This document shows, in pieces, positions 5,005 through 60,386 of a DNA stretch of 64,000 nucleotides. The position numbers and the translations under genes were made by a program. The DNA lies in the NCBI GenBank assembly GCA_043799545.1, contig JAZDNO010000004.1, forward strand, positions 64,001 through 128,000. Direction: 5' to 3'. The DNA is from Methanobacteriota archaeon. GTDB lineage: Archaea > Thermoplasmatota > Thermoplasmata > SG8-5 > DAIRED01. The notes beneath the pieces were generated by a model. It made no database searches and was not told where the DNA came from. It saw nothing but the letters and a program-made list of their open reading frames with translations. Each line of letters opens with the position of its first letter. Position 1 is the first letter of the stretch.

Positions 5005-6432
5005 CTATCCCCTCTTTCCTCGCCCCTTTTTCTTTTGCTTGCGCTGCTCTTTCTCCTTCTTTTTAAGGTTCGAGTAGTATGCCATGAAGCCGACGATCAC
5101 TGCCACGACCGCGACGATGGCGATGATGGCCATCCAATTGATTTCCACAGGCTCCTTGTAATCGGACGGCACTCTGTCAACTGTGACGGCGGTCGAGAAC
5201 AACTCCTCGCGCGCGGCCCCGCCGTCCGACCAGCCAAGAGTGTATATTATGCGCGCGGTGAACGCGGTCGTCGATGCCTTCTCCGCCTTGATTGTGATGC
5301 GAAGGTGCCTCTCAGTGACGTTCGAAAGGCTCAGCACGATGCTAGCCGGATCCACGGCCACGTCGTCGATTGTGGCGGAGGTAATCGTGATGTTGTCACC
5401 CACCAGCGAGAGCGTCGCGCTCCCCTCTCCAGTGAAGTACGCGTCTACGGTCGTGCTGTTGCCGAACTTCAGGAGCGGAACGTTTTTCACATACTGGACT
5501 ATGACCTTTCCAAAGTCCAGGAGGGTGTACCCGGTCCTCTGGACGTTGACGTTTATCGAGAATTGCTGCTCGAATGCGGGAACGAGCGCGACTGTCGCGG
5601 GGGTGATGAGGTACTTCGGCTCTCCGCGCACCGTCCCCGTGACCTTGAGCTCGCGCGGGCTCCATGCGGGGGCGGCGAAATCGATGAAATAGAATCGCTC
5701 CTCGCCGGGGTGGAAGATGGGGTAGTTGTCGCCGGCCTTCAGGGGCTCTGACTCGTTGTTCTTGTCCCACTTGAACCTGGTCGAGAAGTATTCGCCGAAG
5801 GGTTCAAAGCGAAGCGACAGCGTCAGCGGGACGTTCTCCACGTTGTTGGCCCTGACGTAGAAGCTCTGGTCCGCCGGGTCGAAGGACGAGACGCTCTGGG
5901 TCTGGAACGGCGACACGGCGAAGAAAAAGTCCGGCCTTGACAGGGAGAATCCGGATTCCGGCACCTCCACGACCACGTCGCCTGCCCAATCGAGAGCGCC
6001 GTCGACGTAGACTGTGAAGTTCCAGACGCCCGGAGTCGCCCTCGCGGACATTCCGACCGCGAATTTGTATATGTTGTTTGCTCCTATCGAGCACTGGCTG
6101 AGATTTACATACATCCCGTACTTCGCGTCCGACCAGACGCTGTTGACGCATGCCCAAGAATAGTAGTTGGTATCATCCTGGACGGCGGGAGCGGTCGCTC
6201 CCGGGTGGCATACGATGGTCACGTTCGCATGCGGCGCATCCAGCGAAACATCGATGGAGTGTATCACGCCAGCGACCATGATTGGAACTGTTCCGGCCGA
6301 AAACCTGAGGCTCTCGCCGGGTATGTAGAAGCTGACGGAGCTTACGGCGGCGGACGCGGGACCGGCCAATGGGGTCAGGGCCAAGAATCCGAGGGCCAGC
6401 AACACCAACACCGAGAGCGCTCGCATTCTCAT
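5005..6432 (-). CDS. Cell-surface protein with signal peptide, Ig-like beta-sandwich domains, C-terminal TM helix and Lys-rich tail
   Basis: ORF-track start 6456; ATG at 6432 follows GGAGGGG; signal peptide to ASA-A; WMAIIAIVAVVAVIVGFMAYY + KKKEKEQRKQKKK. Confidence 0.78.
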   Translation of the reverse strand: MRMRALSVLVLLALGFLALTPLAGPASAAVSSVSFYIPGESLRFSAGTVPIMVAGVIHSIDVSLDAPHANVTIVCHPGATAPAVQDDTNYYSWACVNSVWSDAKYGMYVNLSQCSIGANNIYKFAVGMSARATPGVWNFTVYVDGALDWAGDVVVEVPESGFSLSRPDFFFAVSPFQTQSVSSFDPADQSFYVRANNVENVPLTLSLRFEPFGEYFSTRFKWDKNNESEPLKAGDNYPIFHPGEERFYFIDFAAPAWSPRELKVTGTVRGEPKYLITPATVALVPAFEQQFSINVNVQRTGYTLLDFGKVIVQYVKNVPLLKFGNSTTVDAYFTGEGSATLSLVGDNITITSATIDDVAVDPASIVLSLSNVTERHLRITIKAEKASTTAFTARIIYTLGWSDGGAAREELFSTAVTVDRVPSDYKEPVEINWMAIIAIVAVVAVIVGFMAYYSNLKKKEKEQRKQKKKGRGKRG

Positions 6433-6469
6433 AGTTCGCCCCTCCAAAGCATACATGTCGTTAGAAGGC

Positions 6470-6486
6470 TTATTTATATAAAAAGG
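6470..6486 (-). promoter_or_regulatory. Archaeal TATA/BRE promoter for the 5005..6432 gene
   Basis: CCTTTTTATATAAATAAG on the minus strand ~20-25 nt upstream of the first ATG (6456). Confidence 0.6.
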
Positions 6487-6489
6487 TTA

Positions 6490-6497
6490 GCTATTAA
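6490..6497 (+). repeat. Left target-site duplication GCTATTAA
   Basis: Exact match to 14831-14838, immediately outside the inverted repeats. Confidence 0.95.
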
Positions 6498-6558
6498 GGT
6501 TCTGTTGCGTTTAAGGGTGCTATCACCCGCCGCTAGTGCCCTGTTGCACGGCGGGTGC
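6498..6558 (+). repeat. Left transposon end: terminal IR plus subterminal TGTTGC-Nx-GGGTG boxes
   Basis: TGTTGCGTTTAAGGGTG (6503-6519), TGTTGCACGGCGGGTGC (6542-6558), inverted CACCCGCC (6524-6531). Confidence 0.85.
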
Positions 6559-6632
6559 TGACCTCGATTAAAGGCATCCGAAAGTGGCTTATACGCGCTC
6601 CACGATGCCCGCAGCATAGGAGAGTGCTAGGG

Positions 6633-6941
6633 GTGCGATTGAGTATATTGGCCGTCGGAGTTGTAATCTTAGTGCTGGGTATGGTCGTCGCCTTATTGGG
6701 AATACAGGCCGACCTTGATAACCCCTATGTCACTATGCCAACCAGCAGTGGATATTCATACTACTACCCGCCAACGAGCATCGGTATGGCTGTGTTTGGC
6801 GCTTTAATGATGGCGGCGGGCACATTTTTCATGGGGTTGGGTGCTGGCATCCCCTCCCCCGTCAAATATACTTGTCCCAATTGTGGGGCAAAAGATTCGG
6901 CCAGTAATTTTTGTAAAGGCTGTGGTATGAAGTTGCGATAA
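6633..6941 (+). CDS. Small 2-TM membrane protein with C-terminal zinc ribbon (transposon cargo)
   Basis: Two hydrophobic helices then CPNCG...FCKGCG; start uncertain (track 6555, GTG at 6633 preferred). Confidence 0.65.
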   Translation: MRLSILAVGVVILVLGMVVALLGIQADLDNPYVTMPTSSGYSYYYPPTSIGMAVFGALMMAAGTFFMGLGAGIPSPVKYTCPNCGAKDSASNFCKGCGMKLR

Positions 6942-6984
6942 ACGGCCAGTAATACTTTGGGTGCAAGGCGCCCAATTTGCAATA

Positions 6985-7374
6985 CTATTTATTTTGTTTC
7001 TGTGCTTGCACCTTTGTGTAAATTTCGACTATCTGGTTGAAATTTCGTCTGTTCTTTAATTGTGCAACGATTTCATCTGTCTTTTTCAAATCACCAGATA
7101 GAATGCCTTGCTGGACCATTGTAACACAAACTTTCCACTCATTACAGTTCATCCATTCCTTTTGAAAAAACCACATCCAGAATAATGAAACCGCAATGCC
7201 TATCAAACCTAGCATCCACATGGGGAAATCCTGTAAGCATGCGATAACTGAGCCCACAAATAGCGATATTGATACGAGGAGTCGCTGATTGACTATGCCC
7301 AGAATTGAAACAGCGCTGGCGTGCTCACATTCCAGATACGACAACCAATCCTGCAAGGTTAATTTTTCTTCCAT
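6985..7374 (-). CDS. Small 2-TM membrane protein of unknown function (cargo)
   Basis: LLVSISLFVGSVIACL and WMLGLIGIAVSLFWMWFF helices; start at 7374 or 7389 avoids overlap with the upstream gene. Confidence 0.6.
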   Translation of the reverse strand: MEEKLTLQDWLSYLECEHASAVSILGIVNQRLLVSISLFVGSVIACLQDFPMWMLGLIGIAVSLFWMWFFQKEWMNCNEWKVCVTMVQQGILSGDLKKTDEIVAQLKNRRNFNQIVEIYTKVQAQKQNK

Positions 7375-7399
7375 CGCGGTCAAACCCATTTTATAGGCA

Positions 7400-7636
7400 T
7401 CATTTTTTCTTTTGATTGTATTGCTCTTCCCGAGCCAACCGTTCATAAGCCGCTCTTTTTCGCTCGGAAATTATTAGACAACTGGCTTCGACACTACCGC
7501 ACATCCTATTTGCCATCGAATTCCAGACACCATGATATACTTCAAGCCATGTGTATTTTGCCAATAAATATTTCAAATCTTTTATCATTTTATCGGCGAT
7601 TTCTCGGTCTTTTTGTTCAAAGGCTTTAATTTCCAT
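7400..7636 (-). CDS. Small helical hypothetical protein (cargo)
   Basis: RBS GAGGTGA precedes ATG at 7636, overlapping the stop of the upstream gene. Confidence 0.55.
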   Translation of the reverse strand: MEIKAFEQKDREIADKMIKDLKYLLAKYTWLEVYHGVWNSMANRMCGSVEASCLIISERKRAAYERLAREEQYNQKKK

Positions 7637-8354
7637 AATTTTCACCTCGCCCATAACGCCTTCTGACATCGTTTCCATCTAATTCAGAGCCACAATTGGA
7701 GCATTTATAATTCTTTCCCAGCCATTTAAGGTCGCCAACGCTGCAAACATGGCATTTTGGGCTACTCCCTTCCAATGGGTCTTTTAACTCACTACCGACC
7801 TCCGCCCCCCTTGACGGTAGCGCTTTTCTTTCGACTGTACCGCCCCTTACCATATATCCTTCTTCGACCCCACCGAGTTTACCCATTAACTCTGCGGGTT
7901 TTCTCCCCGATGGCATTTCAAGCTTTAATTCATGTGACCGTTTTACTTTGCTATAAAACGTTTTCCAGCATCGTAATACGTGCTTGTTTTGATAATCCTG
8001 CAAGTCATCGAATGTTGGCTCAAAATACTCATTATCGTCATTACATACAGTCAGGTATATCCCATACGAATGAAGATATTCCAGTACCTTACTATAAAAT
8101 TCTTCCTCATCCTCCACATGCTTTAATAGGTCTGGTTCGAGGAGCGTATAATACATGTATTTCGATAGTATGGCCTCACGAATCCCCCTTAATCCATTAT
8201 ATGCCCTATTATGGTCTTTAGTATTATCGGGGTCCCAACCGATTCCCCGAATCATGACCTCTAATGTGAACTTGTTCTCTGGCCCCCGGTCCCTAATCCA
8301 CCTCAGGATTTGGCGTCTAACTTTTCCCATCGCTATGGGTGTTTTTTTATTCAT
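7626..8354 (-). CDS. Hypothetical protein with putative N-terminal winged helix and C-terminal zinc ribbon (cargo)
   Basis: RBS GAGGTGG before ATG 8354; N-terminal RRQILRWIRDRG...F(T)LEVMIRGIG pattern; CHVC...YKCSNCG. Confidence 0.65.
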   Translation of the reverse strand: MNKKTPIAMGKVRRQILRWIRDRGPENKFTLEVMIRGIGWDPDNTKDHNRAYNGLRGIREAILSKYMYYTLLEPDLLKHVEDEEEFYSKVLEYLHSYGIYLTVCNDDNEYFEPTFDDLQDYQNKHVLRCWKTFYSKVKRSHELKLEMPSGRKPAELMGKLGGVEEGYMVRGGTVERKALPSRGAEVGSELKDPLEGSSPKCHVCSVGDLKWLGKNYKCSNCGSELDGNDVRRRYGRGENYGN

Positions 8355-8398
8355 TTTTACCACCTCTTCTTCCCACGGGGGCGTAGCAGATGATGCAA

Positions 8399-9385
8399 TT
8401 ACTCTTCTAGCGCCTCCCTAATTTGCTGGCATTTCTCCTCGATAGCATCTACCATTTTTATAATTTGTTGTTTTTGCTTGGGTATCAATTTTACGATGCG
8501 TTTATGATTGACTAATAAGATACGCTCACAACTTTTCTGAAACTCTTCGATAAACATTTGGTTTGAATCGTGCACTCTTGGTACATCTATGGCGGGTGTC
8601 TCGATTCCTTTTCTTTGGCTTACGCGAATATCCTCCACCCGCTCTTTTAATTCCCTATCTGAATAATCGTATTTCTTTACTTCATTGAGAACTACAATTT
8701 GTGTTTTTTCATCCTCGACTTCAGACAATATTTTTAATTTCTCAGGATTTAATGTTGATGTTTTACTAACAAATTCCTTTTGTACAGATTCCGGCGCTTT
8801 TTTCATTAGAGTAACCACATCGCCGACCTCGCTGGTTTGTATTTCGCCCTTTTCTACTCTCTTAAGAAATGATTCTCTTAGATTTTTTTCGGGTATTCGT
8901 GAGACTTCGTACAGTGATGATGTAGGCACCGAAGACGGCGTCTTCGCTTCATCCCTAATTTCTCTTGCTTTTAATATGTGCTGGATAGCGGTTTTATCGG
9001 AGTACCCCAGGGCATCTGCGAGGTCACCTTGATTTTTATATATGCCCGCCACCCATATTTCCTGTATCGCATGCTCCCTTTCAGTCGATGATAAATCTTG
9101 GCGATGTAAATTTTCTATAAGGGATTCCACCAGAACCTGGTTATCCGAAACGTTTTTTATTACTGCCGGGATTGTAGCTTTATTAGCTAGCTTACTGGCC
9201 CTCCAACGACGCTCACCACATATAATTTCGTACCTATTTCCTTTTTTTCTAACGACAATTGGTTGTAATATTCCATGAATTTTAATCGAATTGGCGAGTT
9301 CTTTAATATTCTCTTTTGTGAACTTCTCTCTCGGTTGCATCGGATTCGGCGTTAGCATCTCAATATCTAGTTCTTGATACTCCAT
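8399..9385 (-). CDS. parB: ParB/Spo0J-family protein (CTPase domain + HTH), no ParA in window
   Basis: PNPMQPR, LANSIKIHGILQPIVVR, ICGERRWRA, ENLHRQDL, then HTH (QGDLADALGYS). Confidence 0.9.
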   Translation of the reverse strand: MEYQELDIEMLTPNPMQPREKFTKENIKELANSIKIHGILQPIVVRKKGNRYEIICGERRWRASKLANKATIPAVIKNVSDNQVLVESLIENLHRQDLSSTEREHAIQEIWVAGIYKNQGDLADALGYSDKTAIQHILKAREIRDEAKTPSSVPTSSLYEVSRIPEKNLRESFLKRVEKGEIQTSEVGDVVTLMKKAPESVQKEFVSKTSTLNPEKLKILSEVEDEKTQIVVLNEVKKYDYSDRELKERVEDIRVSQRKGIETPAIDVPRVHDSNQMFIEEFQKSCERILLVNHKRIVKLIPKQKQQIIKMVDAIEEKCQQIREALEE

Positions 9386-9619
9386 GTTAAATTCCCCCGG
9401 ATACTCTGTTTAACGTACATCATCATACTCGTATAAATAACTACATTTCACCTTTCGACTACCCCTATTCGAATTTTACGAAGAGACGAACATCAATTTA
9501 GGAAGCATTCAGGGCTTTTATCACATTATTTTTCAAGGGAAACCGTAGTCAATCCCCCGATAAATATATATATTGCCTGTTTTTTCAGTAAATTATTTAT
9601 AGTAATGCTGCTTTAACCG

Positions 9620-10168
9620 ATGGTAGTAACTATGGAGTTCGTTCCCATGTTAATAAACCAAGAAGAAGGCTGGCGTTTGCCCGAATTATACGATACCATG
9701 ACACCAACTGAAAAGGCATCAGCTATTAAATCTTGCGTTTTAACTTTTCTTAATAACAATGGACCGGCTCCAAAATCAGTAATCGGAAAAGCGATAGGCA
9801 CGACTCATGAAGACAGCTTAAAAAGGGCTTTGGATTACTTGGTTCATACTCGTCAAATTTATTCAGAGAAATGGGGTTCGCGAAATCCAGTATATTTCCC
9901 GAATGGTTGTTTGGGGCACCCCCTCTATCAGGGGCGTATAATTTGTGGTCGGAAGGAATACACAATTAGAACATATATAGACCGAGTCACTGGTAGAAAT
10001 TTAACAATAACTGAGTATGAAAAAGATTATTCGGGTAAACAAGACCCCAAAGGAGGCATTAGAATAGACGCCGTGGATTTAGACGCCATTATTAGAGAGT
10101 TAGTGAGGATAAATGACTCATTGCGCCAGAGTGTTGAAATTAACGACAGAGGTCTAATATCAAGGTGA
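9620..10168 (+). CDS. Winged-helix protein fused to a PUR/PC4-like (DUF3276-like) nucleic-acid-binding domain (cargo)
   Basis: VLTFLNNNGPAPKSVIGKAIG...LKRALDYL wHTH pattern; C-terminal EYTIRTYIDRVTGRNLTITEYE...GIRIDAVDLDAIIREL resembles a PUR repeat. By-eye call. Confidence 0.55.
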   Translation: MVVTMEFVPMLINQEEGWRLPELYDTMTPTEKASAIKSCVLTFLNNNGPAPKSVIGKAIGTTHEDSLKRALDYLVHTRQIYSEKWGSRNPVYFPNGCLGHPLYQGRIICGRKEYTIRTYIDRVTGRNLTITEYEKDYSGKQDPKGGIRIDAVDLDAIIRELVRINDSLRQSVEINDRGLISR

Positions 10169-10172
10169 GAAA

Positions 10173-11504
10173 ATGAACACGCAACTATCAATGTATGTGG
10201 AGGAAGAGGACGCGCAAAAGGCTGTATGTAGATTCGGGAATCTTAAAATTCCCCGAGGATTATTTTCAATGCCGACAATAAGTCCAGGTATTCAGAAAAA
10301 TTTAGATGTGGAAGCATTGATGGCTAACATTAGCGGTGGCTCCTTCCCACATGCAATTACGCCACATCTCAGCACAAAACAGAGATATATTGTGAAATTA
10401 ATGCCAATGCTCCCCTCTGGCAAAGGCGTTATACATCCGTTTGTTGTGCCAGACCCGGAATATGAGGCTCTTTCCGTCAATTGTCTTGCGAGATTGAATT
10501 ATATGCAATTTGAAAATCCACCCCCCACAGTGCGTATGATTATGGATTCGGGGCTGACCGATGACCCGGATACAGATAGATTTAATGTAACAACAAGATG
10601 GCAAACCATTAGGCAGCGCTATGGCCTTGCTCCTTTGTTAGATTGGTCGTTAAATCTTCACGACTCCATCAATTCCGATTTGTATCTTGCACCGACCCCG
10701 ATAATGCGGGCCGATGAAAAACTTAAAAGCATTGAAGAGGCTTTTACCAGTGGGTATTTCCTTCTCTCAAATGCCGTCAGTTCGGCTCGATTCGCGTTGA
10801 ATGGGATTCACACGTTGCTCCATATCGAAATTTTTTCCGATACGGATGAAGCTGACGCTGCTCGAAACAAGATACTTACTGAGTTCGAGTCTTGGAAATC
10901 CGAGAAACAGCAATATCGGGGTTCAATAGTAGGCATAAAGCTCTATGACCCAAACAACTTATTCGGAGAAGCTGACTCGGGTTCAGTAAGGCGCAGATTA
11001 TTCAGCGAATTTGTAACAGAGCTTTCATCAAAGGTTCGAGGAGCCGATGGTTTTGTCATTGGTTATAATTTTGCCAATCTATCTCTTGGAATTTTGGATA
11101 GCGGCGCAGATTTAGCTACATTCAAAGTGGCTGGGGGAATGCGTATCGATGTGCCAATTAAATCAAGCAAGGGGAAGCGTGGTAAACGAAGGATTCCTTC
11201 CGTATTCGACGGAAGCACACTTTCCGAGGTGGGAAGCGACATCATCAAACAAACTTACAATAAATATGGTTCATTCCCTGTGCCGGCGTGTATGCAACCG
11301 AAGCCATATTGGGACGAAAATTATAAGGAGGCGTCGATATACGCGAGAAGAACCCGTTGTGCCTCATTGATTGCAGTTGGTGAAGAATATCGAGCAGCGG
11401 CGCTCGATAATGCAATCCCGTTGAAAGATTCCTTACGAAATCGAATTATGCAAAGTGAGGCGAGACAAGAATTGATTGATTTGTGTCCAACAATAAACGG
11501 TTAA
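10173..11504 (+). CDS. Divergent TIM-barrel protein resembling tRNA-guanine transglycosylase (TGT/DpdA) or beta/sce7725-type families (cargo)
   Basis: RBS AGGTGA; N-terminal RFGNLKIPRGLFSMP resembles TGT RxGxLxTPxGxIxTP; GADL near the last barrel strand; no GxDxFD Asp or CxCxxC site. Confidence 0.45.
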   Translation: MNTQLSMYVEEEDAQKAVCRFGNLKIPRGLFSMPTISPGIQKNLDVEALMANISGGSFPHAITPHLSTKQRYIVKLMPMLPSGKGVIHPFVVPDPEYEALSVNCLARLNYMQFENPPPTVRMIMDSGLTDDPDTDRFNVTTRWQTIRQRYGLAPLLDWSLNLHDSINSDLYLAPTPIMRADEKLKSIEEAFTSGYFLLSNAVSSARFALNGIHTLLHIEIFSDTDEADAARNKILTEFESWKSEKQQYRGSIVGIKLYDPNNLFGEADSGSVRRRLFSEFVTELSSKVRGADGFVIGYNFANLSLGILDSGADLATFKVAGGMRIDVPIKSSKGKRGKRRIPSVFDGSTLSEVGSDIIKQTYNKYGSFPVPACMQPKPYWDENYKEASIYARRTRCASLIAVGEEYRAAALDNAIPLKDSLRNRIMQSEARQELIDLCPTING

Positions 11505-11644
11505 TACAAATATATATTGACTTCACCCCGATGTCATAATCGCTGCCAGCTCATTTGCCTATACCGGGCCTTTCGACCCAGATTAATGTTGACATCAAAG
11601 TTGAACTCCTTCTCTATTCTCTGGGCGGTGTGAAAAATAATAAA

Positions 11645-11809
11645 TCATGCCTTACGAACGACAGCGACTATACTCTTACCCTCGTTACGGATGAGCCAGT
11701 TTACCTCATCTCCTGCCCTCAAGTTAAGGGATTCGACTACGGCCTCGGGAATAGTGGTTCGTAACGAGGGACTGGTTGTATTTGCTTTTGAAATCTTGGT
11801 ATTAGGCAT
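11645..11809 (-). CDS. AbrB/MazE/SpoVT-family DNA-binding protein (54 aa), divergent from the transposase
   Basis: Not in the ORF track; hand translation MPNTKISKANTTSPSLRTTIPEAVVESLNLRAGDEVNWLIRNEGKSIVAVVRKA* with the TIPxxVxExLxLxxGDxVxW signature. Confidence 0.8.
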   Translation of the reverse strand: MPNTKISKANTTSPSLRTTIPEAVVESLNLRAGDEVNWLIRNEGKSIVAVVRKA

Positions 11810-11840
11810 GGATACAGGATATGCCTCTGGCCGTATTTAT

Positions 11841-11907
11841 AGTTACCTATATACTGATAATCGTAGTTACCATAACCTTTATATCCTCCCTTGCTATATA
11901 GGTAACT
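11841..11907. promoter_or_regulatory. Divergent abrB/transposase promoter with 13-bp perfect inverted repeat (putative operator)
   Basis: AGTTACCTATATA (11841-11853) and TATATAGGTAACT (11895-11907) bracket a central TAGTTACCA and a CTTTATAT box. Confidence 0.65.
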
Positions 11908-13095
11908 GTGGTAGTAACCACAGAGGCAACAAATATGATGATGGACGATGCGAGACAGGCGCGGGGATTAGAGATACTAAAGGACGAGAGCGCAGTAGTG
12001 CGCATAAGCCAGAAAACTTACCACGTCAAGAGCCAGAGCGGGGAGGGGTTCTACACGGTTAAAAAGCAGATGGGGCTTTGGGGTTGCACATGCCCAGACT
12101 TCACCAACCGAAAGGTGTACTGCAAGCACATCTACGCCGTTGAGTATAGCCAGAAGCTCCGAAAACTCATCAAAACCGAGGAGAGGCCGAGGCCCGTAAT
12201 CGACGCAACCATGCACCCGATGTGCTGCCCGTCGTGCCACGCCGGGGAAATCAAGAGGAATGGCAACCGCGCAACCAAGAACGGGCCAATCCAGCGCTAT
12301 AAGTGCGAGGCTTGCGGATTCAGATTCACCATAGACAAGGGCTTTAGTGGTATGAAATCCGTTCCCGAGAGCATTTTAGCTTCGGTGGACCTCTATTTCA
12401 AGGGGCTTTCTTACCGCAAGATAGTGGACCACCTCAAGCAGTTCTATGGCGTGACTGTCAGCCAGACCACGCCGATGCGCTGGGTGACGAAGTACCTTAA
12501 GATGCTCGGAGATTACGCCGAAAAGCACCAGCCAGACGTGGGGCGCATGTGGCACAGCGACGAAATGGCTCAGAAGGTGAACGGTAAGCAGATGTGGGTT
12601 TGGAACGTCATGGACCACGAAACGCGCTTCTTGCTGGCCTGTAAGATTTCAGAGGGGCGCAGCATCCGCGAAACGAGGGCTGCGATAAGGGTAGCCAAGG
12701 AGAAGGCCGGGAAGCGCCCGGACTTCTTTGTTACCGATGGATTGCCAACATACCCGATAGCAGCCCGAAAGGAGTTCGGACCCGGGGAGAAGTTCGACAC
12801 GCAGAGCCGCCACCACAGATACAAGGATTTCCGCACAGCGCCCAACAACAATATCCTAGAGCGCTTGAATGGAACGCTCAGAGAGCGCTTCAAGGTGATG
12901 CGGAGCTTCGACAACCCCGAGAGCGCCGCCCGGATGCTTGCGGGCATCCAGACGTACTATAACTACGTCAGAGAGCACTCGGTACTAGGCACGACCCCGG
13001 CAATCGAGGCCGACATAGACCTAAACCTCGGAGAGAACCGCTGGGCCGGGATGGTTGGCCTGGTTGCGAATCAAAAGCAGTTCGGGGGCGTGTGA
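11908..13095 (+). CDS. tnp: IS6/IS240-like DDE transposase with N-terminal SWIM zinc finger and IS1-like zinc ribbon
   Basis: SWIM CTCPDF...CKH; CPSC...QRYKCEACG; HTH; WHSDEM, WNVMDHETRFLL, VTDGLPTY, NNILERLNGTLRERFK. Start may be 11935. Confidence 0.9.
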   Translation: MVVTTEATNMMMDDARQARGLEILKDESAVVRISQKTYHVKSQSGEGFYTVKKQMGLWGCTCPDFTNRKVYCKHIYAVEYSQKLRKLIKTEERPRPVIDATMHPMCCPSCHAGEIKRNGNRATKNGPIQRYKCEACGFRFTIDKGFSGMKSVPESILASVDLYFKGLSYRKIVDHLKQFYGVTVSQTTPMRWVTKYLKMLGDYAEKHQPDVGRMWHSDEMAQKVNGKQMWVWNVMDHETRFLLACKISEGRSIRETRAAIRVAKEKAGKRPDFFVTDGLPTYPIAARKEFGPGEKFDTQSRHHRYKDFRTAPNNNILERLNGTLRERFKVMRSFDNPESAARMLAGIQTYYNYVREHSVLGTTPAIEADIDLNLGENRWAGMVGLVANQKQFGGV

Positions 13096-13156
13096 AAGCG
13101 CGCTCCCAATTTTCTAGTTTTTACATATAACGTATGTTATACCGGAATACTAAAAT

Positions 13157-14491
13157 CTATTTAATATCGATTTTCTCACACTCATCCAGTAATTTTATTG
13201 CTTCGGAAAAAGGGATTAATGATTTTGGGAAAGGAGTAAATGATGCAACCCTAAGAAGTGCAGCTGCTTTGCTAACACATAAGCGATGTTTATATCCAGT
13301 ATCTTTATTTTCTTTGGCAAAAATATCTAATTTGCCCTCTATAAATTGTACAAATCGGTCTACGCGCTCGTTCTTAGGCAAGGTATAATTGATTCGATGC
13401 TCATTCTTTACGACGTGATAATTTATTTTAATAGGTGCATATTTATATTTTACTTTATTACCATTAATTTCCTCGGTATGAATCGGACTAAATATTGCAA
13501 TATCCGATAATAATTCACCAAGGTCATAAATATAATCACCCCTCAGGGATAATTGGTCAATATCAATGAACTTGACGCTATTAGCATGTCTCGATACTTT
13601 TTCCATAAAAACATTTCTACCATGACAATCCCCATGCTGGATTGTATTAAATGGCGGTATAAATTTTGGATAATTAGTTAAAATTCGCTCAACGTAAAAT
13701 CGGACATTTTTATATTTAAAACCATTTACAATATATTCCGCTTCAGGATAAATCAAAGGTAACATCGTGTCATTAAATTTCAATATGTCTCGATAGAAAT
13801 GTTCGAGATATGGGGGTTTCGTCAAAGCTAGCAATTGATTCGCAGAGTCGACTTTTTTTGTTTGTGAATACATTAAATTAAATGCTCCCCATAAACTTTC
13901 TAAATGTTTATTATCAAAGCCAAAAGACCTATTCCAGATAAATTCGTATAGTGGTTCAAAATCAGCTAGGTATTCAATTCGCATTACATGGAGTCGGTCA
14001 TTTTTATAGGTAAATTGCTCGGGCTTATGCGGCTGAGCAAATAAATGCAATATTGGCCCCGGAACTTCGGATTCAATTTTATCGTAGTCGGGTATATCCG
14101 ATTTACTTATTTTTAAAACAGTAGTATACTCAGATAATGTCGTTTGTCCATCTTCTTTCTCCCCCCCAATTGAAATGGAATGCTTTGTGCGATAAACTTG
14201 GTCGCCGCTATATCCACCAGACAATCTGTACAGTTCCTTGATTTTCGATTGAATATTAGTAGTTATCATTAATCCGGTATGGACATGCGTGAAACTTAGA
14301 ACTTGTTTTTCAATTTCATCATCTGCTAGTGTCCTCTTACCTTTTAACAGATTTTTTACTAATTTAGCTTGTTCTTTAATATCTGCATCCAGTTTATCAT
14401 TCGGCTCATTGTCTTTAATATTATATGTTTTTTTAATGATTTTCGCAATCCTTTGAACTGTTATAGGCGATGGTTTATTCCTACTTCCCAT
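13157..14491 (-). CDS. Aminoglycoside-phosphotransferase/choline-kinase-fold kinase (cargo)
   Basis: Gly loop LSGGYSGDQVY, VLK lysine, catalytic HGDCHGRN, metal-binding FIDID, YDLGEL. Confidence 0.78.
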   Translation of the reverse strand: MGSRNKPSPITVQRIAKIIKKTYNIKDNEPNDKLDADIKEQAKLVKNLLKGKRTLADDEIEKQVLSFTHVHTGLMITTNIQSKIKELYRLSGGYSGDQVYRTKHSISIGGEKEDGQTTLSEYTTVLKISKSDIPDYDKIESEVPGPILHLFAQPHKPEQFTYKNDRLHVMRIEYLADFEPLYEFIWNRSFGFDNKHLESLWGAFNLMYSQTKKVDSANQLLALTKPPYLEHFYRDILKFNDTMLPLIYPEAEYIVNGFKYKNVRFYVERILTNYPKFIPPFNTIQHGDCHGRNVFMEKVSRHANSVKFIDIDQLSLRGDYIYDLGELLSDIAIFSPIHTEEINGNKVKYKYAPIKINYHVVKNEHRINYTLPKNERVDRFVQFIEGKLDIFAKENKDTGYKHRLCVSKAAALLRVASFTPFPKSLIPFSEAIKLLDECEKIDIK

Positions 14492-14513
14492 TATTACACC
14501 AGAATGAAAGGGT

Positions 14514-14651
14514 TTATTCTTCGTAGATGATTAAATCCTGATTATATTGTGCATCTCTCATTGTATAGCATTTTAATCCTTCGCGCATGTATGAGTTCAA
14601 GTTTTTTCCACCACATGGCCCAGCATTTAAACTCTTTATTCTACCTACCAT
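14514..14651 (-). CDS. Possible 45-aa peptide immediately upstream of the kinase
   Basis: GGTGA RBS before ATG 14651 (MVGRIKSLNAGPCGGKNLNSYMREGLKCYTMRDAQYNQDLIIYEE*), 22 nt gap to the kinase start. Confidence 0.3.
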   Translation of the reverse strand: MVGRIKSLNAGPCGGKNLNSYMREGLKCYTMRDAQYNQDLIIYEE

Positions 14652-14770
14652 CTTAATCACCAACGCATCCCATCCGACATGCAGTTCAGGATTAGACAAC
14701 TAGTAAATAAATCTAGCGACAACGAATATATACTGATAGTGGTGGCAGTATAATCGGTTGGCTCAGATTG

Positions 14771-14830
14771 GCACCCACCGTGCAACACCCCGTTTAGATG
14801 CAACAAAACACCCGCCTACGCAACAGAACC
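14771..14830 (-). repeat. Right transposon end: terminal IR plus subterminal boxes
   Basis: Reverse complement reads GGTTCTGTTGCGTAGGCGGGTGTTTTGTTGCATCTAAACGGGGTGTTGCACGGTGGGTGC: three TGTTGC...GGGTG units; the inner one matches the left 6542-6558 box at 16/17. Confidence 0.85.
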
Positions 14831-15784
14831 GCTATTAAACCCCTTCTGGTGCTGGAGGGCGAAATCCACGACCTCCGTCACGTCGTCCATCGTGGCCCAG
14901 CTCCTTCCGTCGTAGGTGGCGTTCGCGATGGCCGCCTCGCGCAGGTTTGCGACGGCCCTCTCGTCGGCTCCGACCCTCCGTCCGACGCGCCCGATTGCCT
15001 GCACGACCTTTTGGGGGACATCCGCGCGCCCGATGAGTTTCCGCGCCGCCGCGAGCTTGCCCCTGACGATGGCGCTCTCCTTCTCGTGATGGCCCGCAAA
15101 CTCGGCCGGTCCCGCCTTGTACGCCTCCACCCTCCTAACTATCTCGAGGCGCTCCTCGATGTCGCTCAGCGAGCGGGCCGAGGCCCGCAAAACGAACCGC
15201 CGCCTCAGATCTTCCGGGAGCTCGCCCTCGTCGTCGTTCATCGTCGCGATGAGCGTTATCGCCGTCGGCCACGCGCCGTTGGCTTCGACCTTGCGGTTCT
15301 CCGTTGCATCCAGGACGAACTTCAAAATGTCCTCCGAAAACAGGTTCGCACGTTCCATTAGGGCGAAACCGCGGTTCGCCTTCGACAGCAGCCCCGGTCT
15401 GGGGGGGTTGCCCTTCCCGCCCCGGAGCTTCTCGATGGTCGCGGATATCGGAATCTCGACGAACGGCATCCGAGCCCTGACGCGGCTCTTGGGGTTGCTA
15501 GCGGCCTTGCAGGCAGGGCACCTCTCGCGGGCTGTGGGTATGCAGCTGACGGGGCAGCCTTCCGCGACGTCCATCTCAGGCAGCAGCGCGGCAAGCCCCC
15601 TCGCGGCGGTCCTCTTGCCCGTGTCCCTCTCGCCCGACAGGAGGAGGCTGGTAATCCTCGGGTTCACTACAGAAAGGAGCAGCCCGCGCTTGAGGGCGTT
15701 CTGGCCGACGACCCCCGTGAACGGGAAAGGCGGGTCGCCCGCCGAGCCTGGTTTGCGCCTGGATTTCGATGCCTCGTCCGCCAT
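14816..15784 (-). CDS. Degenerate ChlI-like AAA+ (pseudo-ATPase); last 4 codons and stop donated by the transposon IR
   Basis: PFPFTGVVGQ, GERDTGKRT (altered Walker A), FALMERANL replaces LYVDEINL, Cys insert GCPVSC...CPAC kept. Confidence 0.82.
   Translation of the reverse strand: MADEASKSRRKPGSAGDPPFPFTGVVGQNALKRGLLLSVVNPRITSLLLSGERDTGKRTAARGLAALLPEMDVAEGCPVSCIPTARERCPACKAASNPKSRVRARMPFVEIPISATIEKLRGGKGNPPRPGLLSKANRGFALMERANLFSEDILKFVLDATENRKVEANGAWPTAITLIATMNDDEGELPEDLRRRFVLRASARSLSDIEERLEIVRRVEAYKAGPAEFAGHHEKESAIVRGKLAAARKLIGRADVPQKVVQAIGRVGRRVGADERAVANLREAAIANATYDGRSWATMDDVTEVVDFALQHQKGFNSGSVA
14831..14838 (+). repeat. Right target-site duplication GCTATTAA
   Basis: Exact match to 6490-6497. 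Confidence 0.95.
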
Positions 15785-15881
15785 CTGATATTTGGCTCCT
15801 AAATGCGGGTATGCGCTTGGTGGTTAAACCCTTTGCTGCGCTCAATTCCCGATATGTTCTGGCTCCATTGGTCTGCGTGGC

Positions 15882-18800
15882 TTAGGGCCCCGGCGAATTT
15901 TCCCCTTTGCCGGGGTCTGGCGAGTCGCCCGAAACGTCTTCCGCCATCTCATCCGGGGCCTTGGGGTCTTCTTCGGCATCTTGGCCGGCATCCTTCCCTT
16001 TTTTACGTATCATCACGTAAATGAGCGCCATGGCTGCCATCAGGACGATGATTATTATCCACCAGTAATCCCCGAACCCTCCGCCTCCGACTCCGCCGCC
16101 GGTGACATCTATGCTTACGGTATGAGTCGCGGCCCGGTTGCCCAGCGCGTCCTCGGCATAGAACATCAGCGTGGCGTCTGCATCGAAGACCAGCGGCGCT
16201 GTGTACTGGCTCCACGTCGTTCCGCCGTCGAGGCTGTAGAAGATGGTTGCACCGCCCACATCCGCATCGATGGCCATGAGAGTGACGTTCTCGCCAGCAT
16301 GCAGTACTATAGCACCTCCAGTGGGTGTGGGAGACATCGAGGCTGTCGGCGGGGTCACGTCCACGAAAATCTCGATTGTCGATTCTGCGGACTCGTGACC
16401 CAGGTTGTCGGCAGCGTAGTATCGGATTGCGTGGGCCCCTTCAGTCGCAAATGTCAGCGCAACCGAGTATGCGGTCCATGCGCCTGCATCCACCGAGTAA
16501 CGCATTTCCGCGACGCCGGAACCGCTGTCGCTTGCAGCCAGGGTCAGGCTCGTGGCCGTTGTAATATAGGTGGGCGCGTTTCCATACTTTGGGCTTCCCA
16601 CCGTCGCGTCAATCGCCGGGGCGCTGAGGTCGACGATTATGTCTAATTTTTTGATTGCCTCGGTATTGCCCAGGTTGTCCAGCGCTCGGTATTCGATGGC
16701 GTACGCGCCGGCCGTCGAGAAGTTCAATGGACCGGAGTATGTTGCCCAGCTGGTCCATGTGCCCGTGCTGTCTCTGTAGACGCGGAACCTGATGAGGTCC
16801 ACGCCCGCACCTGAGTCGTTCGCTGTGAGGTTGATTTGCGTCGAAGAGCTGATGTAAACCGGCGCCGTGCCATACGACGGCGCTCCGATTTCGACAGAGG
16901 TGACAGGGACGATGGTGTCGACGAACACGTAGAATGTATCAAGGGTCGAGTTCTGACCAATATTGTCACTGGCCATGACGCTGATGTTGTGCGCCCCGGA
17001 GGCGGTCAAAGCGAAATTGCCTGAGTATGCAACCCACGCTCCGCTGTCGATGCGGTACCACATCCCCGCCACGCCTGAGCCCGCGTCCGTCGCAGTCAAG
17101 TTGAAGACGGTCGATGGCATGATGCAGACGGGATTCAGCCCGAACCTGGGGGCCGTAATTGTCAGCGTGACGACTGGCGGCTCCTCGTCTGGCCACACGG
17201 TCACGTTATTTGGCGCCTCCTGATTTCCGGCGAGGTCGATGCTGAAGTATTCGATGTACGCAATCCCGATCTGGTCCTCCAGAGTGAAGTTGCCCGTGTA
17301 AATGTTCAGCCCGCTCCAGCCGCCGTCCCATATTCGGTACTTGATGGCCGCTACGCCAGACAAATCCGTCGTCGCCGTTAGGTTGAAAGGAGTCGACCTG
17401 TTGACGTAGACGGTCGCCGTGCCGTTTTTCGGAGTCCCGATGGAAATCGTCGTGGCCGGGGCATCGGAGTCGAAGCCATGGCGCAAGTCCGCCACCGCCT
17501 GGGCAGCCTCAGTTTGACCCAACTTGTCTGTGGCTATGGTGTAGAATTCATAGAATCCCTGCCCATCAGGGAAGTTGAACGGCCACGACCAAAGTGCAGC
17601 ATTATCGATACCGGCACTCGTCCAGGGTACGGTCCAGGTTCCGTTGATTGCGCCGTACCTGTAGAACAGTTCGACGTTGGCGATTCCGCTCGACGGCGAA
17701 GCGTCGATGGCCGTCGCCGTGAGCGTTATCGGTGTGGTTGTGCGCCAGTATGCACCAGTCACGTCGCAGCCGCTCGACGGCGCCGTGCTGTCTCCGGTGA
17801 TGAATACCGTGAACGAATCGGAGCCCCAGGTAGAATCCGTCCCCGTGACTATGGTCCAGCCGCCCGTGTACCCGGCTGTGAATGTGCTGTTGGGTCCGGT
17901 GGCGTTGTCGAAGGTCCCGAGCACAGGTGCAACGGACCATGCGACAGAGATTGGGCCGAGGTCTCCGCCCGTGACGTTGGAAGCGATTGCCCGAGCCATG
18001 ACAGCCTGTCCGCCGTCCACATATACTGTGCCGATTTCCGTGCCATTCGACGGGTGCACGATTTGGATGGCATCCGGCGTCCAGATTTGCGACGTGACGC
18101 CGAAGCTGTCGTGATTCGTGGCGTTGCCGCCGAAGAGGCCGAGGCCTACCGACCGCATGTCTCCCCACGAGGCGTTCGCCGGGCTAGTAACGTTCATTGA
18201 GAAGTTGGCGCTCTGTCCAGGGTTGAGATTTCCCAAGTCCAACACGATGGTGCCGAAATTAGCATCTATTGTAGTGCCGTTCCAATGGCAGTAGAGCGTC
18301 GCGTTCCACCCGCCATTCAATCCCGTTGTCACCCACATCAGTGTAAAGCGGTCTGGCGCTGTCCCGTTGTTGGTGGCGCTGGCGCTGTAGCTTCTCGCTC
18401 CGTTAATCCCTATGCCTCGCGTCATTGTCTGTTCCGGCCCAGGAGGGTCTTGGAAAATGTTGCCACCGACCCCGTCGATTGATAGGTCCGGGAAGTAGCG
18501 GTTGATTGTGATGTTGATGGTGTAATTGATTCCCGGCGCGTAAACGACGGTCATGTGCGCGTAGCCAGTCGCGGCTCCCGAGGATAGGGTGTTGTTTAAT
18601 CCCCATGCACCCGTGAGCGATGCGGATGCGCCTGAGAAGTTCTGCAGCGACCACGTCACGTTAGCATCAAATAAATAGGTCCAGTTGGCGTCGTAGGCCG
18701 ACGCGAAGACGTCGCCAGAGAAGCCAACATCTGCGACTGTGTCCGTGAGATTCTCGCCGGAGTTGCCCGCGCCGGTGTTCATGCGGATGTGGGCGATTGA

Positions 18801-29815: not shown

Positions 29816-32800
29816 ATGAGTTCCGAAGGCAGAAGGAGAAAGTTAGCCGCCGCAATAGCTGCGTTGTTGACCATCCTGGCCGCCCAATCCGCGGTCGCCG
29901 AATATGACACAGGGGACGACATGGACATCTTCATTGACTCACTAGGAAACAAGAACATGGTCTGGCGCGAATCGGTGAACGGGACATATCAGGTGTTCTA
30001 CGGGTACGAAATAGTAGATACAATTTACGACCAGAATAACGATTCCTATGTAAATCAGACCATAAACGCCAACATAGTCTTTGATGACGGCTATCTAACA
30101 CTCCAGAATTGCATAATCAACGGCAATATCAAGACAACTAGAGCGCAAGTGGTCATAGAGAACTGCGAAATCTATGGCAACGTCAACCACAAGCTCGGAA
30201 GCCTCGTCATCGAATCCTCGAACGTCAGCGGCAACGTTGATGTGGAAAATTCTGATTTGGAGCTAAGAACCAGCTACGTCAACGGCAACGTGAAAGCCAA
30301 GACGAACACAGACGAAAGTTACTCGACCATCGTTACTGGCAACACAGTCAACGGCAATGTCGATTTGAAAAGCGGAATATGCTACGTCGTCGGGAACACG
30401 ATTGATGGCAATCTGAAAGTCAAAGAGCCAGCAATCATTCAGGAAGTCAGCGACAACATTGTAAGCGGGAACACGCAGTTAACAAATAACACCAGCGGCT
30501 TCGATGGCTACCAGATAACGAACTCGACGCTGGACGTGATGTACCCGCAGGTTGCGATAGATTCGGCTTCGGGCATGGCCTACGCGCTATGGGTCGTTAA
30601 TAGCAACAGAACCCTCGAATTCTGGTACGCGGTCAGCCCCGACACGATATTCTGGCTTGAGGCTCATTATGCCGGGACACTGAACTACGCCGCAGGAAAT
30701 CCAGAACTCGATTTCGAGACTATAAACGGTACTCTCTACGTTACCTGGCTGAACGGCGGAGAGTTGACGATTGCACCGGATTACAACGCGCCGCCAGATC
30801 TGCAAATCGTCGGCATCTCGGCGGACAAGCCAGTTGTTTATCTGAATAGCCCTGTAACCATCACGTTGGAGATGGGCAACGCTGGCAACGGTTCCGCGCT
30901 ATACACCGTCGTCAATGTAACGGACATCGGTGGAGAGAATGAAACCTTGATTGATTCGTCGGAAATCGGGATACTCCGGCCCGGAACGGAGAACGTTTAC
31001 CAGTTCAACTGGACGCCCGTAAAAACGGGTATCCATTACCTCAAGGTCGAGATGCTTGCAAATCATATAGAGCATCATTCCCCTGCGGCGCTCGTAGAAA
31101 GTCCGCCAACGATAATGAGCTTCGGATTTCCCGTGTCCATGGTAGCAGAGGAGAAAATCATTTGGTATGGTGGCCACATTGTGCCTAATGGTATCATAGA
31201 TGAATTTCCAGGCATCAATCCAACTTGGGGAGGAAGATATAACAGCACAGAAATCGTAATACCAGAGGATGACCCAGGCAACCTCGTCATCCAGTCTGGC
31301 GGTACTCTCATCTTCAACGACAACGTTACTTTTGTTATCGAGCAGCCCACTGGCCCTGGCGGTTGGCCCACAACCAAAAATGAAATCACCATCCAATCCG
31401 GCGCCTCCTTCATCATCGACAGCCCCCTTCGTACCACGACCATCCAGTCCCCCTCTTTAGACCCATATTACACCTACCCCTTCCTAAACTCCGGCGTCGT
31501 GGACTTTCTAGGCGCGAACGTAACATACACCTACGGCGACACGACGGACCTCTCCAAGTTCGGCGGAATCCAGAACAAGCCGGGGAGCGTGTGCAACCTG
31601 ACGGACTGCCGCGTGGAGTTCGCGGACACCCATAGCGTCATCGCCAACAACTCCGACATGCGGCTCGACGGTCCTGGAACCCTTGTTGGAAAAGGGAACA
31701 AGAACCCGCCGTATCCGAAGGGCGCCGGGATTACCATCAAAGGCGATGCGGGCGTTGTGGTCGATGGCGTCACGGTGGGGTGCAACGAGGGCTACGGGAT
31801 AAAGTGCGTGGATACCGTGAGTGGCACGAGGATTAGGGACAGGTTTTCCGACGGCTCGGCCTCGAAAGTTCTCACGTATTACGGCCAGGGAAGCCAGACC
31901 ATAAGCGTTTCTCTGCCTAAGGACGCATCAGTTGGCCCATCCTGTCTCAGTTTTGAGGGGGAATACAGGACACTGGCCGGCTCCGAAGATATGTATCCGG
32001 GACACTACTATGCGATGTATTGCTCAGCCAACACGGTCTGGACTGGCGACGCGGGCAACGTGCAGCTATATGCCGGTTGGAACATCGATGTGAATTACTC
32101 AAGCGTGTGGAGCTATCCCCGAAATGTTAACGTGATTATGGCTGAAATCAGTTGCATGATATTTAGCGAGGCTCCGTTCGACCCGAAGCTTGACGTGGGA
32201 AACGATGGCAGTTCCGAGTGGCTTGTAGCCGGGCGGTTCTCCTCCTCCGTTTTCATAGATGACACGAACACTACGCCGTTCCTCTGCCAGCAAATCCAGG
32301 ACTATATCGATGCCCATTCGCCGGATGAAAACGGGATGGTCTTGGTGCCGTTGAAGGTCAATTCCAACGCCAGTGGAATCATCACTCTGTCGGATTTGAA
32401 CATTTCGTACATGAGGGAATCGAAAATCACAGGCTGCGAAATCAGTAATAATCTGGAGACGGGAATATACTACGAGGATTCAAACATATCGACAGTTGAT
32501 TCGCAGATACACGACAACGGCAGAGACGGGATATTTATCTCAAATTCATACCCTGAGATTGAGTCTGTCACCGTGACCAACAATAAAATCGCCGGAATAA
32601 ATGTCGATAACGACAATCTCCTGAACCCATGGGGGTTGCCCGCAAGCGACCCAGGAAATGAGCTGGGCTATTTCGTGTGGCTCGACGAGACGGGGTGGCA
32701 TTTGCGGTGGAGTGGCGATGGTTCGAACCACGCCTTCAACGGGACAATCGAAGGCATTGACCAGATTAGCTCATTCACAACAGTCGGCATGGAATACCCG

Positions 32801-59969: not shown

Positions 59970-60386
59970 ATGAACTACGCAATCATCTATTACTCGCACT
60001 TCGGGAACGGGAAAAGGATAGTCGAGCGCCTGGCTTCCAAGCTTCGGGGGGATGTCAAGGTGCTGTCTCTGGCCGAGGCGGACCCTGCGGCGCTGCCTCC
60101 TGCGGACGCCTATGTGTTTTCCGCGCCCGCCGAAGCCTTCAGCCTCCACCGCGGGTTCAAGCGATTCCTGAAGGAGCTTCCACAGATGGACGGGAAGAAG
60201 TACGGGATAATCAACACCCACGGCATGAAGAAGGGCCGGCTTCCGGCGATGGAGGCATTGCTCTCCAAGAAGGGGATGCTGAAGGCCGCGGAGCTTGACA
60301 TCCAGGTCGCCGGCGACTACAAGGGCGGGAGCGGGCTGCCCGCCGGTTGGGAGGAGAGGGCGGACGAGTTCGCGGGGAAGATGTGA
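59970..60386 (+). CDS. Flavodoxin-like protein
   Basis: GGTGA RBS; IIYYSHFGNGKRIVE, YVFSAP, GIINTHG. Confidence 0.8.
   Translation: MNYAIIYYSHFGNGKRIVERLASKLRGDVKVLSLAEADPAALPPADAYVFSAPAEAFSLHRGFKRFLKELPQMDGKKYGIINTHGMKKGRLPAMEALLSKKGMLKAAELDIQVAGDYKGGSGLPAGWEERADEFAGKM

Follow-up and report, generated by a model that had tools for sequence, protein, structure and literature searches.

What came to rest at the very end of a host gene in an archaeal genome, where 8.3 kb of DNA now lies between two copies of the same 8-bp sequence? The locus is part of a 64,000-nucleotide stretch (the window) of contig JAZDNO010000004.1, positions 64,001 to 128,000 of the forward strand, from a Methanobacteriota archaeon (GTDB Thermoplasmatota; assembly GCA_043799545.1), a 2.06-Mb metagenome-assembled genome (MAG) of 31 contigs. 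An earlier note on this DNA had proposed a large unit transposon built on an IS6-type DDE enzyme. The present analysis supports that proposal: window positions 6498-14830 are best explained as an intact, single-copy IS6-type unit transposon belonging to a large archaeal cargo-carrying family, with a probability of roughly 84%, and the layout recurs in 43 elements. The element was likely inserted recently and as one piece.

Direct reading of the sequence delimits an intact element of 8,333 bp, bounded by inverted repeats (IRs) and a target-site duplication (TSD). The 13-bp terminal IRs and the exact 8-bp TSD reported earlier were both confirmed at the two ends. The left tip (IRL), GGTTCTGTTGCGT, occupies 6498-6510, and its reverse complement (IRR) occupies 14818-14830, with 13 of 13 positions matching; the tip begins with GG and contains a cTGTt motif, as in the IS6 family. 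A repeat scan extended the terminal inverted similarity inward to 18 of 22 positions and revealed an inner inverted pair of 17 nt at 6542-6558 and 14771-14787, identical at 16 of 17 positions. The boundaries, core genes and insertion site are as follows.

6490..6497, no strand: left TSD copy, GCTATTAA, identical to 14831-14838
6498..6560, plus strand: left end, with the IRL tip and two putative binding-site copies (TGTTGCRY-Nx-GGGTG) at 6503-6519 and 6542-6557
11645..11809, minus strand: 54-aa AbrB/SpoVT-like DNA-binding protein with NCBIfam PrlF/AbrB matches, in the family's regulator slot
11841..11907, no strand: regulator-transposase spacer with a perfect 13-nt inverted repeat, AGTTACCTATATA / TATATAGGTAACT, at 11841-11853 and 11895-11907
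11908..13095, plus strand: transposase open reading frame (ORF) of 395 aa, with a SWIM zinc finger, a Zn ribbon and an IS6-type helix-turn-helix (HTH)-DDE domain
14771..14830, minus strand: right end, with three putative site copies at 14772-14787, 14786-14805 and 14809-14825, and the IRR tip at 14818-14830
14831..14838, no strand: right TSD copy, GCTATTAA, an exact 8-bp match to the left copy
14816..15784, minus strand: host ChlI-like AAA+ gene, with the insertion at its very end

The putative site motif, TGTTGCRY-N2-7-GGGTG, occurs five times in the window, always at the two ends of the element and facing inward (two on the left, three on the right). Shuffling gave an expectation of 0.05, and none of 100 shuffles produced five. 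A motif scan of the element interior for relic ends gave no further sites. Tip-like motifs at window 30603-30613 and on contigs C18, C27 and C31 lack the site motif and look like chance matches.

The insertion changed the C-terminus of the ChlI-like protein from ...GFNS* to ...GFNSGSVA*, with four extra codons read into the IR, because the stop codon of the gene lay just outside the duplicated 8 bp. Removal of the element in silico gives back ...GFNS followed by TAA and then the upstream region of the next gene. This sensible host junction bears on the possibility of a metagenome assembly chimera, in which arms of different elements or organisms would have been joined through a common transposase repeat. 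The 31-contig MAG and the abrupt shifts of composition inside the element could be taken in its favour, but the ends of the two arms match and are flanked by one and the same 8-bp host duplication, the assembly contains the transposase only once, and some relatives lie on complete or megabase-scale contigs. Together with the restored junction, these observations make a chimera highly improbable.

The transposase is an intact ORF in the middle of the element, as the earlier note had described. It matches the NCBIfam model NF033587 ('IS6 family transposase') with 135.3 bits against a cut-off of 125, aligning model positions 1-201 of 202 with residues 146-354, and the Pfam family DDE_Tnp_IS240 (PF13610) with an E value of 6.5e-16. 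Residues D218, D277, E318 and R325 are invariant across 17 transposase homologues, and the assignment to IS6-type DDE enzymes is supported by these sequence comparisons. Ahead of the IS6 core lies a 145-aa N-terminal extension carrying the SWIM zinc finger and the Zn ribbon. Homologues align from residue 9-12, so the true start is probably ATG 11935, and the protein would be ~386-395 aa long. A sequence search of the PDB matched no solved IS6-type transposase, the best result being a weak match to the Mutator family. The AbrB-like gene is divergent from the transposase, lies 99 bp upstream of its ORF, and encodes a protein 49% identical to its counterpart in L023, the closest complete relative. 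Each arm of the spacer repeat holds a TATA-like box ~30-40 nt from the likely starts, ATG 11809 and ATG 11935. The spacer may therefore comprise two mirrored TATA-box promoters and possibly a shared operator.

In the classical IS6 arrangement, the cargo that is moved lies between two copies in direct repeat (PMC7986276). The locus could in principle be a decayed pseudo-compound transposon of this type, left over from cargo with an IS copy on either side, one of which lost its transposase. The earlier note had named remnants of a second transposase at the ends as the sign of such an origin. Searches by tblastn detected no second transposase copy or fragment in the element or in the whole 2.06-Mb assembly, and blastn detected no other copy of any element part in its own assembly. 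The transposase also lies mid-element beside a conserved regulator and not at an end, and the outer ends are inverted and extend only ~60-70 bp before the cargo begins, whereas IS6 compound transposons need direct repeats. With the single-transposase layout recurring in all 43 elements described below, a pseudo-compound origin is largely refuted and may be regarded as very unlikely.

To place the element, transposase homologues were collected. About 750 of similar length were found in a protein collection, most with 44-50% identity and a handful with 60-79%. A single-protein query of genome contigs gave no matches; an alignment query, scanned against one genome per species, gave 79 loci, to which metagenome contigs were added. 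The loci derive from Methanoregulaceae, other Methanobacteriota, Thermoplasmatota, Bathyarchaeia, Nitrososphaerota, Aenigmatarchaeota, Woesearchaeota and Nanoarchaeota, and one surveyed contig is labelled Desulfobacteria; the elements span at least six archaeal phylum-level groups. When an element was counted as bounded only if an inverted pair enclosed the transposase and an 8-bp direct repeat matched exactly, 43 bounded elements resulted, including the window element and L023. They measure 2,219-10,983 bp (median 4,088 bp), the window element being the third largest and none falling below 2.2 kb. The IR tips are mostly GGTTCTG, with variants in some Nitrososphaerota and DPANN members. In a tree of 40 transposases, bounded multi-kb elements occur in every clade, and the window element groups with L023 (100/99 support).

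The earlier note had asked whether homologues lie in multi-kb IR/TSD-bounded units with variable cargo, and had held that relatives of only ~1.5 kb would speak against its proposal. Besides the window element, 42 such units of 2.2-11 kb were found, and all close relatives with usable flanks carry cargo. L023 (61% identity) is 3,863 bp long and has the same IR, the TSD GCACGGAA and two cargo genes, encoding 463 and 133 aa, unrelated to the window cargo. L022 (79%), L024 (64%) and L025 in genome G002 (75%) carry differing genes, of 364-385 aa or of other kinds, between the left end and the AbrB-like gene. L111, a short metagenome contig with an 88% identical transposase, carries in its right arm a small gene different from the kinase-like gene found there in the window element. 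At the DNA level, the window element is similar to any relative only within the transposase gene.

Comparison of the bounded elements revealed a shared architecture. At the ends, the terminal site, consisting of the tip, a variable hexamer and a GG-rich box, recurs ~40 nt inward in each element. The variable parts agree between both sites and both ends of one element and differ between elements, and extra copies of the terminal 7-mer amount to 0.89 per subterminal window against 0.11 per interior window. The end sequence follows the transposase tree weakly and switches between sister branches, so strict co-divergence is not claimed. Sister Methanoregulaceae transposases, such as those of L037 and L047, differ in the hexamer after GGTTCTG and in the GG box, which suggests that end specificity may switch rapidly.

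Upstream of the transposase, a small gene transcribed away from it occupies a regulator slot at a distance of 40-250 bp. Across 83 loci, the slot holds an AbrB-like gene in 26, a CPKCKSPYWD-type zinc ribbon in 16 and a second AbrB-like type in six; in a further 15 loci, three groups were read as ribbon-helix-helix (RHH)-like from the sequence, unscored. In L026:9756-9965, L033:9701-9859 and L094:9795-9935, the gene type is swapped while its position remains constant. Cargo is found in two slots that are the same in all 43 elements, one from the left end to the regulator and one from the transposase stop codon to the right end; the right arm is reduced to 56-82 bp in four elements. The cargo itself is variable, with 170 of 271 element ORFs lacking a blastp match in any other element. 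L038 and L041, which lie in different Methanoregulaceae genomes with different TSDs, have ParB and transposase in common over 64-78% of their length at 74% identity, indicating that cargo and core were inherited and moved together.

The composition of the window element raises the question of when its cargo was acquired. The GC content is 42.8% in the element against 59-60% in both flanks, and within it the transposase (55.8%) and the ends (56-62%) contrast with cargo blocks of 41% and 34% (cargo overall 34-44%), the GC content changing abruptly where the transposase ORF stops and where each end meets the interior. This mosaic indicates that the cargo was gained separately from the core. It would also fit an alternative history, in which a ~2.1-kb element consisting of the ends, the 128-aa gene, the regulator and the transposase landed here and then gained low-GC blocks (about 6950-11520 and 13100-14750) in place, so that the 8.3-kb unit never moved whole. 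The high-GC parts total ~2.1 kb, near the smallest family members (2.2-2.6 kb), and a perfect TSD would outlast later internal insertions. Such a history, however, would require foreign DNA to have entered a 2-kb target on two separate occasions, and in a repeat scan of the region the borders of the blocks showed neither IRs nor TSDs nor att-like repeats. The same two slots hold the cargo in all 43 elements, in L038 and L041 the cargo travels with the transposase between genomes, and cargo of 34-44% GC in a 59% GC genome is not of local origin. Gain in place is therefore unlikely. Gain before arrival at the window site is more likely, because the slots are constant family-wide and cargo travels with the core elsewhere.

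Several observations nevertheless weigh against a unit transposon that arrived whole. The TSD alone cannot date the gain of cargo to before or after landing; insertion as one piece is thus likely, not certain, because a perfect TSD would outlast a later gain. The predicted empty-site junction is ...AAGGTTAGCTATTAA joined directly to ACCCCTTCT..., and an exact 24-mer across it gave 0 matches in metagenome contigs. Genome G001, from the same genus, contains the ChlI-like gene on a contig that begins within it, leaving the junction uncovered, and the left flank of the element has no match among 12 relatives. As neither an empty site nor a circle junction nor a second copy was found, we infer movement of the whole 8.3-kb unit from the TSD and the relatives. 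Every element checked is single-copy in its own genome, so that recent transposition is not directly seen; L037 and L044 have no second copies in their complete or megabase-scale genomes, where the matches are other members' transposase segments of 70-77% identity and one 32-nt end-like match of 91%. About half of the surveyed loci are without an IR/TSD pair, many of them with truncated contigs or short flanks, and the distant Thermoplasmatales loci L063 and L065 have IR pairs 1.7-2.1 kb apart with no matching TSD. Finally, no cargo protein of the window element has a match in PADLOC, and the functions given for the cargo are predictions.

Further end-like sequences were observed in the own and related genomes. 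A lone left end with the two-site layout, GGTTCTGTTGCGT... with a second site at 60303, lies in C12:60259-~84000 of the own genome and is followed by ~24 kb of 37-50% GC DNA in the 59% GC genome. Neither a partner IR/TSD nor a transposase was found for it; the stretch may represent a large member of the family that has decayed or has no transposase. In G002, which belongs to the same order as the window genome, the 11-nt IR tip GGTTCTGTTGC occurs at 21 places, against one for a reversed control. One full-length close transposase homologue was found there, so solo ends, fragments or relatives lacking a transposase must be numerous in G002.

Analysis of loci with more than one end revealed tandem arrays. 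Ends abut tip to tip at exactly 8 bp in 11 junctions, at 6 bp in one and at 7 bp in one, and no other spacing between 0 and 40 bp was found in the surveyed loci. Where both outer flanks are visible, the whole array is bracketed by the same 8-mer. Three elements lie in a row in L045:5219-12220, with the 8-mer CAGTTGAG, and in L038:2728-12666, with the 8-mer ATTTTAGC. Three of the four neighbouring elements examined have a transposase of their own, and one, of 1,116 bp, does not. The window element itself lies outside any array. On the simplest reading, the arrays arise by normal insertion with an 8-bp stagger, targeted to the 8 bp beside a resident end. An IS26-style conservative exchange between ends was considered and set aside, as it would not place the resident's flanking 8-mer at an internal junction. 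Head-to-tail junctions are also present in L027, L029, L031, L032, L034, L040 and L041. The L023 element (L023:6665-10582) interrupts the second of the binding sites in the left end of a further family member, with the TSD GCACGGAA, and its landing site appears to be a further case of end-directed insertion.

The window element carries 8-9 passengers beside the small regulator and the transposase; the earlier estimate of about ten was slightly high, while the placement of passengers on both sides of the transposase holds. The cargo genes are as follows.

6555..6941, plus strand: 128-aa membrane protein with a C-terminal zinc ribbon (Pfam Zn_ribbon_3, E 2.8e-6), GC 50.6%
6985..8363, minus strand: three cargo ORFs (153, 92 and 245 aa) that follow the ParB-N gene on its own strand, with no significant family matches
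8399..9385, minus strand: ParB N-terminal-domain protein of 328 aa (Pfam ParB_N, E 2.4e-35; TIGR00180, 138 bits)
9620..11504, plus strand: two-gene cargo unit of a 182-aa protein with a winged helix-turn-helix (wHTH) and a 443-aa tRNA-guanine-transglycosylase (TGT)-fold protein, as predicted
13157..14491, minus strand: APH/choline-kinase-like phosphotransferase of 444 aa, right-arm cargo, 33.7% GC

In its GC content, the 128-aa gene is nearer to the transposase and the ends than to the remaining cargo. The ParB-N protein heads a four-gene minus-strand set, in which the C-terminus of the 245-aa protein is a CxxC...CxxC zinc ribbon, and its homologues are cargo in L038 and L041. It was the sole match in a PHROGs search of the cargo. 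The 444-aa protein has weak Pfam EcKL/APH matches, an Atlas feature score of 0.96 and structural TM scores of 0.61-0.66 to APH clusters. Rfam and tRNA scans of window 5500-16000 were empty.

The 443-aa protein gave no PADLOC, Pfam TGT or NCBIfam match and no Dpd profile match. Its AlphaFold2 model (pLDDT 94.4), compared with the PDB by Foldseek, gave TGT proteins for all of the top 50 matches listed, with a probability of 1.0, TM scores of ~0.5-0.6 and ~10% identity, and the predicted structure clearly has the TGT fold. The family is rare, with 46 representatives among 1.84e9 proteins. The pair with the 182-aa protein is kept in the metagenome contig L112:2-1550 (53% and 44% identity), where it adjoins a gene that, by eye and unscored, reads like an IS4/IS5-type transposase. 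Among the structural neighbours of the TGT-fold protein in Atlas are clusters of 665-683 aa with Ser/Thr kinase domains. Dpd-type systems insert 7-deazaguanine modifications into DNA by means of DpdA, a TGT-fold transglycosylase, with the ParB-like partner DpdB. The proximity of a TGT-fold enzyme and a ParB-N protein is reminiscent of DNA modification by DpdA/DpdB; we offer this only as a lead. The cargo of the window element probably forms a module for defence or for the modification of nucleic acids.

For the family as a whole, Pfam matches were tallied over 145 cargo proteins and include nine N6_N4 DNA methylases, four SocA/Panacea and three ParB_N proteins. The tally also holds ResIII, HD, the type II restriction enzymes MvaI/BcnI, Bpu10I and BsaWI, GmrSD, Fic, HEPN and NYN, as well as nucleoside deoxyribosyltransferase and radical SAM. 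Judged by these domain matches, family cargo consists mostly of predicted restriction-modification, toxin-antitoxin and other defence genes.

A mechanism can be proposed that accommodates these features. The transposase would bind the repeated sites of the 60-70-bp ends and pair both ends, which would then be cleaved at the GG tips and joined to target DNA cut with an 8-bp stagger, giving rise to the GCTATTAA duplication. The 54-aa AbrB-like protein probably represses the shared promoter region. Cargo occupies two permissive slots, one in the left arm and one in the right arm, and new members would often insert exactly beside a resident end, building tandem arrays. Profile scans found no resolvase encoded in the element, and its single-copy state fits transposition through a cointegrate (replicative) or by cut-and-paste alike.

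The literature on IS6 elements and on archaeal transposons gives this family its context. The 2021 review of the IS6 family lists members of 0.7-1.76 kb, with ISDsp3 as the single, one-passenger exception, describes cargo transfer only through paired direct copies, and notes zinc-finger transposase extensions only in the bacterial clades h and i (PMC7986276). According to a 2019 survey of archaeal integrated elements, archaea had so far yielded no passenger-carrying transposons (PMC6563490), and the archaeal 'transposons with cargo' reported later are aloposons, which integrate at tRNA genes (PMC8813620, PMC11529989). Aloposons were considered as a prior description of the family and rejected, being tRNA-site integrating elements and not DDE transposons with terminal IRs. 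No description of an archaeal IS6 cargo-transposon family was found in the open-access literature, in line with the earlier suggestion of an undescribed class (PMC7986276, PMC6563490); an earlier description may exist.

The element is best called a member of a lineage of IS6-derived unit transposons, widespread in Archaea and loaded with defence-type cargo. We lean, at slightly better than even odds, towards a broader interpretation: an undescribed Archaea-wide IS6-derived family, combining a SWIM/Zn-ribbon/IS6 transposase with a swappable regulator, multi-site ends, 8-bp TSDs and end-directed stacking, would rank among the main carriers of restriction-modification, toxin-antitoxin and new defence or modification genes in archaea and would seed defence islands. 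Cargo-carrying DNA transposons drive gene flow in bacteria, and in the 43 archaeal elements one IS6-type enzyme serves 1-9 kb of cargo enclosed by its own ends. If the interpretation is correct, the family fills the gap left by the passenger-carrying DNA transposons reported as undetected in archaea. As its cargo is rich in predicted defence genes, it offers a route for the horizontal spread of immunity in archaea. The cargo also provides a candidate list of new systems, such as the TGT-fold, wHTH, ParB-N and kinase set, and the two-site ends, swappable regulators and shared-8-mer arrays give testable hypotheses on end recognition and target choice.

How does the element compare with known systems? 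It shares with the IS6 insertion sequences (ISs; IS26, IS257/IS431, IS1216, IS6100 and the archaeal ISH14- and ISC774-type) the DDE core, the GG/cTGTt tip and the 8-bp TSD. In enzyme and TSD it therefore agrees with the IS6 family, but it lies outside the family in size, gene number and end structure: the ISs are mostly 0.7-0.9 kb long, with one ORF and simple 15-20-bp IRs, whereas the window element is 8.3 kb long in a family of 2.2-11 kb and has an extra regulator gene, two or three sites per end and the 145-aa SWIM and Zn-ribbon N-terminus. IS6 ISs move cargo as paired direct copies or translocatable units, while the window element has one transposase, inverted ends of 60-70 bp and its cargo inside the IRs. 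It is thus not an IS6 pseudo-compound transposon or translocatable unit. One transposition module, passengers within one IR pair and a TSD make it a unit transposon, or transporter IS (tIS).

Tn3-family and Tn7-like bacterial unit transposons are self-contained IR units with multi-site ends and variable defence or accessory cargo. The layout of the window element is alike, and the stacking in arrays recalls Tn7-like arrays at attachment sites. The window element differs in its unrelated single-protein transposase, its TSD of 8 and not 5 bp and its archaeal host, and no resolvase, TnsC/TniB-type ATPase or target selector was found in it. As to target choice, IS30 and IS911 target the IRs of resident elements. 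In these, as in IS26, which favours sites beside an existing IS26 copy (PMC7986276), the ends of a resident relative attract the incoming element, as seems to be the case here. IS26 targeted conservative events produce no new duplication and leave a common IS copy; in the archaeal arrays, by contrast, abutting elements are separated by one common 8-mer, as would result from normal staggered insertion re-using the resident's flanking 8 bp. Also comparable are the IS6 clades h and i, bacterial and mostly from Clostridia, with similar N-terminal zinc-finger extensions but sizes of 1.2-1.76 kb and no cargo (PMC7986276), and ISDsp3, the sole listed IS6 'transporter IS', which likewise has its passenger inside the IRs but is a single case with one hypothetical passenger (PMC7986276). 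By these descriptions, the archaeal family is set apart from both: in it, and in several archaeal phyla, cargo is the rule, extends up to many genes and is rich in defence functions.

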